Virus record (IMG/VR): IMGVR_UViG_2687453529_000005
DNA: 6,844 nt
Reading direction: 5' to 3' (one strand)
DNA from: a virus
Lineage: Duplodnaviria > Heunggongvirae > Uroviricota > Caudoviricetes
Shown piece after piece: positions 2,765 to 6,248 of the stretch (position 1 is the first letter of the stretch; each line of letters starts with the position of its first letter). A model generated the notes under the pieces. That model saw only the letters and a program-made list of their open reading frames with translations, had not been told where the DNA came from and did no database searches. Both the position numbers and the translations under genes were made by a program.

Positions 2765-2958
2765 AATACATCTACAACGGCCCAGCAAGCGGCGTCACCC
2801 TTGCCGATGGACAAGAAATCTTATTGTGGCCGAACAGTGAAATTGATCTGCCAGAAGACAACGAGTGGGTCATGACCATGATTGCCCGCAATCATCTGAC
2901 TCCTGTCATCACTCAGGAAGAACAAAATAACGTAGAGGAAATTGTACATGGCAGCTAA
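2761..2958 (+). CDS. Small acidic protein of unknown function (Mu gp38-like position)
   Basis: 65-aa ORF translationally coupled at both ends: ATGA overlap with the upstream gene and an 11-nt overlap with the sheath start. No recognisable motif; supported only by operon context. Confidence 0.4.
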   Translation: MKYIYNGPASGVTLADGQEILLWPNSEIDLPEDNEWVMTMIARNHLTPVITQEEQNNVEEIVHGS

Positions 2959-4372
2959 TTATCTGCACGGTGTAGAAACTATTGAAATTGAAACCGGCCC
3001 GCGTCCGGTTAAAGCGGTAAAATCCGCCGTCATCGCTTTAATCGGTACATCCCCCTGCGGTCCGGTAAATAAACCAACATTATGCCTTTCTGAAAGCGAT
3101 GCTGCGCAGTTTGGCTCGACTCAGGCTAACTTTACGATCCCACAGGCACTGAAGGCAATTTATGACCACGGTGCCGGTACGGTGGTGGTGATTAACGTGC
3201 TGGATCCGGCAAAACATGGCTCCAACATCAGCAATGAGAGTATCACTTTTGATGCTAACAACCAGGCGAAGCTCGCTCACCGCAATGTGCGTAACGTGGT
3301 ACTAAAGCCCTCTTCATCAAATTCATCAACCTTTAACACCGCAGCATTTAGCGTAGATGAACAAACAGGCATAATTACCCGTAAAGGAGCCGACATTCCT
3401 CCTGGTGCGAAAGTTTGTGCCTATTATTCCTGGTGCGACCCTACAAAGGTCACCGCAGCCGATATTATCGGTACCGTAAATACCGCAGGCGACCGCACGG
3501 GGATGAAACTCCTTCAGGACACCTATAACCTGTACGGTTTCTACGCCAAAATCCTGCTTGCTCCTGTGTTTTGTACGCAAAAATCGGTGACTACTGAGCT
3601 GATTGCACAAGCGGAAAAACTCGGTGCGATTACCTACATTGATGCCCCGATTGGGACAACATTCCAGCAGGTATTGGCTGGACGCGGTTCGCAAGGGGCT
3701 ATCAACTTCAATACCAGCTCTGATCGTGCGCGTTTATGTTACCCACATGTCAAAGTTTACGATGGCATCACTAACCAGGAAATTCTTGAGCCTCTCTCTT
3801 CGCGTGCTGCCGGGCTGCGTGCCAAAGTAGACCTCGAAAAAGGTTTCTGGTGGAGCAACTCAAACCAGGAAATTCAGGGTATTACCGGTATTGAACGTTC
3901 GCTTTCCGCAATGATTGATGATCCACAAAGCGAAGTGAATCAGCTCAACGAAAACGGCATTACCACTATTTTCAATAGTTACGGCTCTGGTCTGCGCTTG
4001 TGGGGTAACCGCACAGCGGCATGGCCTACCGTGACCCATATGCGTAACTTTGAAAACGTCCGCCGGACAGGCGATGTAATCAATGAGTCAATCCGTTATT
4101 TCAGTCAGCAGTATATTGATATGCCGATTAATCAGGCACTTATTGACGCGCTGACCGAATCGGTAAATACCTGGGGCCGAAAACTGATTGCCGACGGCGC
4201 ACTGCTTGGCTTTGAGTGCTGGTACGATCCGGCACGAAATTCACCGGCTGAACTCAGCGCCGGGCATTTATTGCTGAGCTATAAATTCACCCCGCCACCG
4301 CCGCTGGAACGTCTGACGTTTGAAACTGAAATTACTTCTGAATATTTAGTCTCTCTGGAGAGCAATAGCTAA
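2948..4372 (+). CDS. Contractile tail sheath protein (P2 FI / Mu L family)
   Basis: N-terminus MAANYLHGVETIEIETGPRPVKAVKSAVIALIGTSP matches the conserved sheath N-terminal pattern (HGV..E...G.R.I...S.A..G.VGT) as recalled for P2 FI and Mu L. About 474 aa. SD GAGGAA 7 nt upstream of the ATG at 2948; the ORF track's TTG at 2942 is less likely. Stop overlaps the tube start (TAATG). Confidence 0.9.
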   Translation: MAANYLHGVETIEIETGPRPVKAVKSAVIALIGTSPCGPVNKPTLCLSESDAAQFGSTQANFTIPQALKAIYDHGAGTVVVINVLDPAKHGSNISNESITFDANNQAKLAHRNVRNVVLKPSSSNSSTFNTAAFSVDEQTGIITRKGADIPPGAKVCAYYSWCDPTKVTAADIIGTVNTAGDRTGMKLLQDTYNLYGFYAKILLAPVFCTQKSVTTELIAQAEKLGAITYIDAPIGTTFQQVLAGRGSQGAINFNTSSDRARLCYPHVKVYDGITNQEILEPLSSRAAGLRAKVDLEKGFWWSNSNQEIQGITGIERSLSAMIDDPQSEVNQLNENGITTIFNSYGSGLRLWGNRTAAWPTVTHMRNFENVRRTGDVINESIRYFSQQYIDMPINQALIDALTESVNTWGRKLIADGALLGFECWYDPARNSPAELSAGHLLLSYKFTPPPPLERLTFETEITSEYLVSLESNS

Positions 4373-4896
4373 TGGCTGGAAAAATTCAAATTAACCGTAT
4401 TACCAACGCCAATATTTATCTCGATGGTAATAACCTTTTAGGTCGTGCAACAGAAATTAAATTGCCGGATGTAAGTTTAATTATGCAGGAGCATAAAGCA
4501 CTGGGCATGGTGGGTAAAATCGAACTCCCGGCAGGTTTCGATAAACTGGAGGGCGAAATTAAATGGAACTCCTTCTATCAGGACGTAATGCGTAAAACGG
4601 CAAACCCGTGGCAGGCGGTTGCATTACAGTGCCGCTCCAGTATTGATTGCTATAACTCCCAGGGGAAAGCGAATCAATTAGCGCTAGTGACACATTTAAC
4701 CGTGATGTTTAAAAAGAATCCACTGGGCACATTTAAACAGAATGAAAACCCGGAATTCAGCAGCGCCTTTGGTTGCACTTATATTAAACAAGTAGTTGAT
4801 GGTGAAACGCTGCTTGAACTTGATTATATGGCCAATATTTTCCGGGTTAATGGTGTGGATCAATTAAGTACCTATCGCAATAACATCGGTGGCTAA
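4372..4896 (+). CDS. Tail tube protein (P2 FII / Mu M family)
   Basis: 174 aa; C-terminus ...FRVNGVDQLSTYRNNIGG closely resembles the P2 FII C-terminus as recalled (...VNGVD.L...R.NIGL). Immediately follows the sheath gene with a 1-nt overlap. Confidence 0.9.
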   Translation: MAGKIQINRITNANIYLDGNNLLGRATEIKLPDVSLIMQEHKALGMVGKIELPAGFDKLEGEIKWNSFYQDVMRKTANPWQAVALQCRSSIDCYNSQGKANQLALVTHLTVMFKKNPLGTFKQNENPEFSSAFGCTYIKQVVDGETLLELDYMANIFRVNGVDQLSTYRNNIGG

Positions 4897-4900
4897 GTTA

Positions 4901-4920
4901 TTCGGGGCTACGGCCCCGAA
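4901..4920 (+). other. Stem-loop between tube and chaperone genes (possible attenuator or mRNA-stabilising hairpin)
   Basis: TTCGGGGC-TACG-GCCCCGAA is a perfect 8-bp GC-rich stem with a 4-nt loop, 5 nt after the tube stop, followed only by CTTT (weak U-tract). Confidence 0.35.
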
Positions 4921-4946
4921 CTTTGCAAAATAAATAAGGACACAAA

Positions 4947-5264
4947 ATGAAAGAACATTATATCTTGCAGTTTCCATTTACGTCGGCAGCAGGAAATAAT
5001 ATCGACACGCTGCAATTACGTCGCCTGAAAGTAAAAGATATGCGCAACGCCCGCCGGATCAGCGAAAAGCCAGAAGAGTGGGATGAACCGCTGATGGCGG
5101 CGATGACCGGACTGGTGCCAGAAGATTTAGCCGAAATGGATTTGCTGGATTACCAGGCATTGCAGAAACGATTTCAATCCATGCTTACCGTGGTTACAGA
5201 ATCCTCCCCTGCTATGGCAGGCAATGGCGCTACTGGCGAGATGGTTTCGCTTTCCGCCCAGTGA
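4947..5264 (+). CDS. Tail assembly chaperone (P2 gpE-like)
   Basis: 105-aa ORF between the tube and tape measure genes, the conserved position of the tail chaperone. SD AAGGA 9 nt upstream. Similarity to P2 gpE is from recall only and is loose; ends ...SLSAQ. Confidence 0.7.
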   Translation: MKEHYILQFPFTSAAGNNIDTLQLRRLKVKDMRNARRISEKPEEWDEPLMAAMTGLVPEDLAEMDLLDYQALQKRFQSMLTVVTESSPAMAGNGATGEMVSLSAQ

Positions 5265-5352
5265 GATAGACGCCCTTACCGTCGATGACTTTAGCAACTG
5301 GCTGGATGAAGCCAGCGCCCAAATAAAAATCGAATATGACTCGCAGACCTGA
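5131..5352 (+). other. Open +1 frame overlapping the chaperone 3' end and extending about 29 codons past its stop (candidate E-prime-type frameshift extension or small overlapping ORF)
   Basis: The frame shifted +1 relative to the chaperone is stop-free from 5131 to the TGA at 5350-5352 and reads ...MALLARWFRFPPSEIDALTVDDFSNWLDEASAQIKIEYDSQT. The -1 frame hits TAG at 5267-5269. An internal ATG at 5224 could alternatively initiate a 42-codon ORF. Confidence 0.4.
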
Positions 5353-5453
5353 TGTCTGCGAGTTTCCCAAGCCCGTCAGGTTTATTTCTTCCCTGCCCCT
5401 TTTTTTAGAAAAATAACCAGCGGGCCATTATCAATATTTAAAGAGAAACAATT

Positions 5454-6248
5454 TTGGCCAACGATATTATTACCCAGCTTCAGGCGCGTAATGAGACGTT
5501 GACGCAGGCAATAGCCCGTTACGGCTCACTCAACGCCAGAACATTGTTAACTCTCTCTACTCAGCAGGCGACAGTTATCAAACTAACGCAGCAGCTTGCC
5601 GATTCCGCTCTCCGCCTGGAGGAAAATAGCCGCAGCCGCGCTAATCTGATGGAGAAAACCCAAACATTTGCCGGGCAATTTAGCAAAGTATTCAATGTTG
5701 AAGCCCCCGACTGGAAGTTGCCGTATGAGTTTCAGGACAACATGGTCAATATGGCGACCAAAGGTGGGATGAATGCTACAACCCGCGAGACGCTCAGCCT
5801 TAATCTGCGCGACTGGAGCATGGATTTTAACCAGCAGCAGACCACCTTACAGAACGCAGCCCAAACGCTGATCGAAGGCAATTTGTCGTCGATGCAGGAT
5901 CTCAACCGTTATATGCCGGAGATCGCCAAAGCTGCCACCGCCACGCGCGAAAGTGCTGAAACGTGGGCGAATGCCGCGCTCGCGACTCATGATCGACTGA
6001 ATATTGCCCCGGAAAATTTCCACGCCGCGCAAAACATGATGTACGGCATTAGCAAAAGCGGTGGGCCTGCCATTGCTGAACAAACGCAGTGGATAGAGAA
6101 ATTTGCAGGTAAAACCGGCGCTCAGGGTCTGGAAGGTATGGCTGAACTGACTGCCGCCATGCAGATCGCAATGAAAAATGGGGCCAGCGCCAGTGCGGCG
6201 GCGGAGAATTTTGAAATGATTTACTGGAGAGTTTATCAAAAGCGTTAA
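5454..6248 (+). pseudogene. Tail tape measure protein, N-terminal fragment only (truncated by deletion)
   Basis: TTG start after the chaperone, in the expected tape measure position, with Ala/Gln-rich helical sequence typical of tape measure N-termini. The ORF stops after about 264 codons, far too short for a sheathed-tail tape measure, and its last ~11 codons (..EMIYWRVYQKR) are read out of frame from cadC-like sequence. Confidence 0.6.

Follow-up and report, generated by a model that had tools for sequence, protein, structure and literature searches.

Programmed frameshifting in tail chaperone genes is near-universal among long-tailed phages, of which automated annotation recognises the -1 form only. 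Shifts of -1, -2 and +1 in tail chaperones are nonetheless all on record (PMC5009743), and 350 cases of forward slippery sites no more than 10 bp from annotated joins have been collected from actinobacteriophage genomes, the joins being nearly all in tail chaperone genes (PMC10274946). The stretch of E. coli prophage DNA analysed here (6,844 nucleotides, IMG/VR record IMGVR_UViG_2687453529_000005; hereafter the window) raises the question of how a second chaperone product could be made if the -1 frame is closed. Behind its tail assembly chaperone gene, the -1 frame is open only at 5087-5266 and is ended by TAG 5267-5269, while the +1 frame is open for 73 codons, and the original prediction therefore took the +1 frame to carry the chaperone extension, in contrast to the usual -1 arrangement. 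This is a fair description of the locus, but the principle is not new given the -2 shift of Mu and the +1 shifts of other chaperones (PMC5009743, PMC10274946): with all three directions on record, the kind of recoding is already known and its direction is an uncommon one.

A decayed BcepMu-like prophage beside lysC

The window is a decayed BcepMu-like (Bcepmuvirus-type) prophage that adjoins lysC in E. coli and carries genes for a Mor-family activator (on the minus strand), a holin, an SLT transglycosylase and a Gp37-family protein together with the tail genes for sheath, tube, chaperone and a tape measure fragment, with the chaperone gene sitting between tube and tape measure (Table 1). The sequenced phages closest to it are PhiKM, KP12, Ralstonia YO107_2 and the Burkholderia BcepMu/phiE255 group. 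From position ~6214 to its end at 6844, the window consists of the 3' part of cadC and matches the gene of many E. coli strains at 100% identity. Since cadC lies ~168 kb away from the lysC-side prophage in strain FDAARGOS_497, the junction of tape measure and cadC near 6213 implies a large deletion; a similar junction was seen in strain WB61 only. Other E. coli genomes have the same tape measure gene split by ISEcp1-blaCTX-M-15 (L002, NZ_CP033850, 8042-10622) or by an IS903B-family element, suggesting that the prophage remnant beside lysC is a recurrent site of insertion and rearrangement. Because head, baseplate and most of the tape measure are missing, any frameshift signal in the window is an intact relic and not part of a working phage, and it probably serves no tail assembly today.

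Table 1. Features of the tail module and of the chaperone reading frames (positions in the window)
Feature	Position	Strand	Details
Sheath gene	2942-4372		
Tail tube gene	4372..4896	+	PF04985, E=3.7e-56
Tail assembly chaperone ORF (P2 gpE / BcepMu gp41 homologue)	4947..5264	+	ATG 4947, TGA 5262-5264, 105 aa, PF10109 Phage_TAC_7
Open +1 frame, entire	5131..5352	+	73 codons (5131-5349), stop TGA 5350-5352
Candidate +1 frameshift cassette CGA_TTT_CAA	5169..5177	+	slip codon TTT 5172-5174; predicted re-pairing to TTC 5173-5175
+1-frame extension past the putative slip	5176..5352	+	58 codons and TGA; linker NPCLPWLQNPP, then E'-like domain
E'-like domain, conserved core (LLWQAMALLARWFRFPPSEIDALTVDDFSNWLDEASAQIKIEY)	5209..5337	+	+1 frame kept in all relatives
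Tape measure gene fragment	5454..6213	+	PF10145; start TTG 5454; 3' part of cadC fused on; partial according to PGAP

Two intergenic stretches flank the chaperone region. Between the tube stop and the chaperone start, a strong hairpin at 4902-4921 (UUCGGGGC-UACG-GCCCCGAA) has a minimum free energy of -19.9 kcal/mol (z=-3.6 against shuffled sequences) and is not called as an intrinsic terminator; it might set the ratio of tube to chaperone expression or stabilise the mRNA. The ~100 nt from the stop of the +1 frame to the tape measure start (5353-5453) contain a run of seven T followed by A-rich sequence (CCCCTTTTTTTAGAAAAATAA). A scan for promoters and terminators across 4850-5520 gave nothing beyond the expectation from shuffled sequences, and a scan of the window against Rfam matched zero families.

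The +1 frame probably encodes a homologue of P2 E'

The 0-frame product matches PF10109 over residues 6-80 (E=1.9e-19, 69.9 bits against a cutoff of 25), a model that also matches P2 E, KS14 gp13 and BcepMu gp41, and PGAP labels it as a "phage tail assembly protein". Its chaperone domain ends at Phe76, the last conserved PF10109 residue, and the final 29 amino acids form a variable tail. Across relatives, this 0-frame tail behind the Phe ranges from 5 to 35 amino acids and varies in sequence as well, while the peptide encoded in the +1 frame is conserved and has extensions of 43-78 residues, mostly 54-61. The +1 frame of the window reads ..WFRFPPSEIDALTVDDFSNWLDEASAQIKIEYDSQT, and the original prediction considered it a protein-like extension; its coordinates hold, as do those of the 0-frame ORF, of the 42-codon ORF opened by ATG 5224 in the +1 frame and of a CTT TCC at 5250-5255 that had been put forward as a slip site. 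The chaperone stop and the start of the tape measure gene are 189 nt apart, matching the gap of 190 bp that had been called otherwise unexplained, but the +1 extension fills much of it and leaves ~100 nt. PGAP annotates nothing in this gap, and the reference record of BcepMu uses a different model (see below). The PGAP locus tags skip one number between chaperone and tape measure in two of the loci (RS02250 and RS10675 are missing; L001 and L002), which may reflect a withdrawn call for the small +1 ORF.

Several comparisons link the extension to E' of phage P2, which is joined to the chaperone in the P2 product E+E'. The extension of the window matches PF06528 (Phage_P2_GpE) below threshold (E=0.003, 17.6 bits against a gathering cutoff of 23). 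Of eight +1-type extensions that were scanned, the window's included, four match this model at the same residues with E values of ~0.003-0.04, all of them sub-gathering, and the other four (BcepMu, Komp_PAO1_1, Bise and vB_HM795) do not match; for reference, P2 scores 2e-22 and the E' of Pasteurella phage AFS-2018a 3.9e-14, which clears the Pfam threshold. A profile of 12 +1-type extensions aligns in hhalign to P2 E' with a probability of 91.5% (E=8.5e-7) and to the Pasteurella phage AFS-2018a E' with 97.7% (E=1.6e-12), and the motif (A/L)xWFxFxP(S/G)EIxxLxxDDxxxWLxxAxxQIK is common to +1-type extensions and E'. NCBIfam has no model for E' or for the fusion, and a sequence search of the PDB returned no relatives. 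From the recurrent PF06528 match and the profile alignments to the E' of both P2 and the Pasteurella phage, we conclude at the level of sequence homology that the +1 ORF is probably homologous to E' as found in P2 E+E'.

The +1 frame is conserved across relatives

Frame conservation was assessed in a pooled set of 144 unique +1-type loci that form 23 clusters at <60% identity, span a GC content of 0.45-0.70 and include BcepMu, PhiKM and phages of Ralstonia, Pseudomonas and Burkholderia; all counts on this set ignore shared ancestry. All 144 have E' in the +1 frame. In the collections that were pooled into this set, the +1 frame was seen for the 88 loci gathered with a chaperone query, for 23 additional loci from GC-rich hosts and for 83 of 87 loci gathered with E'-like peptide queries, where the exceptions are three -1-type loci and one in-frame fusion created by a 1-nt deletion. 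Scanning contigs with a single protein retrieved 5 close loci only. Among 30 representatives, the arrangement is that of two overlapping ORFs ahead of the tape measure, the second of which has no conserved start, and extensions of the -1 frame behind the chaperone range from 1 to 77 codons among relatives.

The +1 frame is hence not a chance ORF, being conserved as protein in every related locus examined and probably homologous to P2 E', and the prediction that the chaperone extension of this locus lies in the +1 frame is borne out. Aligning homologous chaperone regions had been suggested as a check on the frame and on the slippery motif alike: the +1 frame proved to be conserved throughout the 144 loci, and so did a candidate slippery motif, which is an in-frame TTT_C (144/144) and not the CTT_TCC originally proposed.

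A single slip site candidate is under synonymous constraint

A +1 shift must fall where the 0 and +1 frames are both open. Over the 144 loci, the latest opening of the +1 frame is 8 nt before the TTT and the earliest closing of the 0 frame is 18 nt after it, so these limits leave a shared interval of 26 nt that corresponds to 5164-5189 in the window. Within the overlap of 0 and +1 frames, each of the 144 loci has exactly one in-frame TTT_C, located at the Phe that ends the chaperone domain; in the window, this is the TTT_C at 5172-5175 (F76) preceded by CGA. The window thereby shows the in-frame TTT followed by a pyrimidine that characterises sites of the UUU_Y type, in a stretch where the +1 frame is open from 5131 onwards.

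The site codon is constrained at the synonymous level. All 144 loci have TTT there, GC-rich hosts with a preference for TTC included, whereas the other Phe codons of the same ORFs are 66 TTT and 118 TTC (50 TTT and 64 TTC in low-GC loci, 16 and 54 in high-GC loci) and the annotated genes of BcepMu use TTT 10 times and TTC 64 times. Other Phe codons switch between TTT and TTC among close relatives, but the site codon never does. Among 29 enteric representatives with <93% identity, the TTT alone shows no third-position entropy among the degenerate codons of the 51 that lead up to the site. In the same representatives, variation follows position 3 of the 0 frame up to the TTT and position 3 of the +1 frame from ~12 nt after it (~5184 onwards), and the +1-frame Trp codon TGG at 5191-5193 is invariant.

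The preceding codon is not universal and includes CGA, TCC, GCC, CAG and others, with members of the BcepMu type carrying TCC_TTT_CGC. In the 85 loci with an Arg before the site, this Arg codon is the rare CGA in all but one (84/85), as compared to 31 of the 658 other Arg codons of these ORFs (~5%), and CGA stands before the slip codon also in GC-rich hosts. This strong preference suggests that the 5' codon contributes to the shift, and one idea is that an E-site effect of the I:A wobble pair lies behind it. With a shift one or two codons further upstream, both frames would encode Phe here, which could account for part of the TTT_C conservation; no conserved slippery pattern was found at those positions.

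Proposed recoding mechanism

We infer from these comparisons, with a probability of roughly 80%, that an E+E'-like product is made by +1 ribosomal frameshifting at CGA_UUU_C (5169-5175). The chaperone gene would then give rise to two proteins from one start codon. The majority of ribosomes would remain in the 0 frame up to TGA 5262 and produce the 105-aa chaperone, while a minority would shift by +1 at CGA_UUU_C, where the P-site tRNA-Phe (anticodon GAA) is predicted to let go of UUU at 5172-5174 and re-pair with UUC at 5173-5175, its better-matched codon. C5175 would not be read again, and decoding would pick up at AAU 5176 and run in the +1 frame as far as UGA 5350. The putative long product of 134 aa, join(4947..5174,5176..5352), would comprise the chaperone domain (residues 1-76), the linker and the P2 E'-like domain and read ...ALQKRF|NPCLPWLQNPPLLWQAMALLARWFRFPPSEID...SQT; the UUU_C junction is thus predicted as ...ALQKR/FNPCLPWLQNPPLLWQAMALLAR, with FNPCLPWLQNPPLLWQAMALLAR as its tryptic peptide. 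By analogy to G/GT of lambda and E/E+E' of P2, the short form may coat the tape measure protein, and the rarer long form may link the complex of chaperone and tape measure to the tube protein.

Stimulatory elements are not evident around the 5172 site: the A site holds CAA, which is not a rare codon, nothing like a Shine-Dalgarno sequence lies upstream, and the downstream RNA fold at 5176-5265 is not significant (z=-1.17). The efficiency of the shift may therefore be low. By analogy to lambda, a low efficiency would suit a chaperone long form that is needed in small amounts; the ratio of short to long form in lambda is 30:1 (PMC5009743). A -2 event cannot re-pair at TTT_C, and a run of three T is too short for transcriptional slippage.

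A broader version of this proposal is that, in BcepMu-like myoviruses and their prophage kin across proteobacteria, a stimulator-free +1 shift on UUU_C is an obligatory and deeply conserved step of tail assembly, with CGA (rare, read through I:A wobble and sitting in the E site) as a selected enhancer in the Arg-Phe lineages. We put this forward tentatively and at somewhat less than even odds.

Alternative explanations

The E' homologue might also be a separate small protein with an initiation of its own, for instance from ATG 5224 (42 aa) or through termination-reinitiation, and no frameshift would then be needed. The ATG 5224 is present in the window and in 19/30 representatives, gene callers do report stand-alone ORFs of 41-84 aa from the E' family, and a TTG directly follows the 0-frame stop in lineages whose overlap is very short. 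Yet ATG 5224 has no match to a Shine-Dalgarno sequence, a start codon shared by all 30 representatives is found in no column of the alignment, and conservation of the +1 frame (LLW.A with the invariant Trp at 5191-5193) already starts upstream of it, so that the 42-codon ORF offered as an alternative in the original prediction does not stand up well. Reinitiation is ruled out in the window's lineage, as its 0-frame stop lies far downstream of where the conserved +1 peptide begins. Separate initiation would also leave the synonymous constraint on TTT and CGA unexplained, and the homologous E' of P2 is made only as a fusion according to its GenBank annotation. Altogether, we consider an independently initiated E' unlikely.

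The remaining alternatives keep a shift but move it away from the UUU_C. A C run at TCC_CCT (5205-5210) could in principle support a Mu-like -2 shift or a +1 shift giving ..TESSP|LLWQ..., since tRNA-Pro could re-pair from CCU (5208-5210) to CCC (5206-5208); Mu offers a precedent with its -2 shift on a G run, as recounted in PMC5009743, and two database proteins of 134 aa (P0010 and P0017) are fused by an indel in exactly this C run (5205-5208). A -2 or C-run shift predicts the junction ...VVTESSPLLWQAMALLAR, and a junction FNPCLPWLQNPP... would be at odds with it. The run is nevertheless missing from most relatives, which carry, for example, GAACCCACAGCA or GCAGCCGGCGCT instead, and it falls downstream of the 0-frame stop in two loci (L037/L038) and in many GC-rich lineages. 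The +1-frame Trp codon at 5191-5193 is invariant despite lying upstream of the run, and P0010 and P0017 represent indels at the DNA level or sequencing errors rather than evidence of recoding, all of which makes a C-run shift very unlikely. The shared interval 5164-5189 holds no homopolymer run that would permit -2 re-pairing, and the C run at 5205-5208 is unconserved. A Mu-like G run (GCC_GGG_GGA) was considered as a candidate in the PhiKM clade and rejected because it codes for the conserved P-G-E of E'; it is absent from the window.

Closer to the original prediction is a prfB-like +1 slip on CUU_U at 5250-5253, which would allow re-pairing of tRNA-Leu in the style of prfB and lies inside the 0/+1 overlap of the window. 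We give it next to no probability: its A-site codon UCC is a sense codon and not a stop, no Shine-Dalgarno element precedes it, the CTT_T motif lacks conservation, with GTT_TCA, CTT_CCA and others in its place among relatives, and in many relatives the 0 frame closes long before this position. With its location inside the conserved +1 peptide LLWQAMALLARWFRF (5209-5253), a slip there would also produce a protein that misses this very segment.

The GenBank model of BcepMu implies yet another scheme, in which the +1 ORF gp42 is the analogue of lambda G with a start of its own and slips by -1 into gp43, an ORF ahead of the tape measure gene. AY539836 indeed annotates gp42 as "probable lambda G..." and gp43 as [quoted passage not shown]. 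The PF10109 chaperone domain is however found on gp41 and not on gp42, which instead carries the E'-like motif; the window has no equivalent of gp43, as its tape measure gene starts only ~100 nt past the E' stop; and the -1-frame extensions behind the chaperone are of inconsistent length among relatives. Conservation of a gp43-like ORF with a -1 heptamer at the end of E' was not seen across the family, and we regard the scheme as highly improbable for the window. For the BcepMu record itself (AY539836, L003, 5841-6346), homology indicates that gp41 corresponds to E and gp41+gp42 to E+E'.

Chaperone-E' fusions in public databases

A fusion protein with the RF|N junction expected from a +1 shift at UUU_C was found neither among 5.8 billion sequences (in a word-indexed search) nor among 1.84 billion cluster representatives, and the E' extension shows up in those protein collections only as stray ORF calls of 41-84 aa. 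Public collections do hold proteins in which chaperone and E' are "fused" (P0010, P0017, P0007, P0031, P0048 and P0061; also locus L162). Some of them go back to a 1-nt indel in the C run at 5205-5208 and others to an in-frame loss of sequence between short repeats, while in L162 a 1-nt deletion ~20 nt past the candidate slip site joins the two parts in frame. These database proteins are decay products or sequencing errors. They indicate that the sequence of the linker is dispensable, and L162 and the indel fusions show that fused forms can exist without recoding.

Implications

A description of +1 frameshifting in BcepMu-like chaperones did not turn up in the literature that could be searched. 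If the +1 shift at UUU_C is real, it would add a rare bacterial case in which +1 frameshifting is conserved yet involves neither a stop nor a hungry codon, would, on the broader version of the proposal, be a natural bacterial counterpart of the influenza PA-X site, and would offer a system for studying how the direction of frameshifting changes as one gene family evolves. With a defined TTT_C site, hundreds of prophages and phages could also be annotated correctly, among them therapeutic candidates from the phages of Burkholderia, Pseudomonas and Klebsiella. The proposal is testable, as one synonymous change at TTT_C is predicted to abolish the shift.

Comparison with known systems

The proposed shift invites comparison with prfB (RF2), which likewise shifts in the +1 direction by re-pairing in the P site. 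prfB requires CUU_UGA with its in-frame stop and a Shine-Dalgarno element 3 nt upstream; stop and Shine-Dalgarno element are absent from the window at both 5172 and 5250. The proposed chemistry is shared by the PA-X site of influenza A virus, UCC_UUU_CGU, which BcepMu-type members approach with their TCC_TTT_CGC and where a +1 shift takes place within this sequence without evident stimulators and, as we propose for the window, tRNA-Phe in the P site would move from UUU to UUC with no stop codon involved (PMC5009743). The enteric members differ from PA-X in their 5' codon, which is CGA and not UCC, and in their A-site CAA or CAG, which is not rare. Bacterial +1 sites of the UUU_Y type, with the same chemistry, are known from argI, from the Yersinia YopN-TyeA fusion (as the likely site) and from FseA of a Mesorhizobium ICE (PMC5009743); like PA-X, they belong to genes and hosts that are unrelated to the window.

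Within phage tails, lambda G/GT follows the same logic, with two chaperone products made at a fixed ratio from one start between the major tail and tape measure genes. Lambda has a siphovirus tail and shifts by -1 on G_GGA_AAG. Mu is a myovirus with the same gene order in its tail module and with an extension of gp41, a distant PF10109 relative, in the same relative frame (+1, equivalent to -2). Its -2 slip takes place on the G run CGG_GGG_CGA, close to where a 144-aa ORF ends, a shift documented by Xu, Hendrix and Duda 2004 as cited in PMC5009743 and PMC2628397, whereas the window has no such run and the Mu extension, unlike that of the window, has no E'-like motif.

The nearest relatives in architecture are P2 E/E+E' and KS14 gp13/gp14, which share with the window the PF10109 domain, a probably homologous extension and the position between tube and tape measure genes. 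As in the window, their extension has no start codon of its own, and their shift is located at a Phe codon or close to one, just past the final helix of the chaperone domain. The difference lies in the direction: P2, KS14 and the Pasteurella phage have E' in the -1 frame behind T_TTT_TTG, but the window has it in the +1 frame, and a -1 shift of the P2 type would find neither an X_XXY_YYZ heptamer nor a -1 frame open beyond 5267. The P2 E' furthermore overlaps the start of the T gene, whereas E' and tape measure are well separated in the window. The TTT_C of the window is placed three codons upstream of the aligned P2/KS14 site and is the sole conserved candidate. If the broader version of our proposal is true, the PF10109 chaperones would be one family that uses -1 (P2), -2 (Mu) and +1 (BcepMu-type) frameshifting at essentially the same junction.
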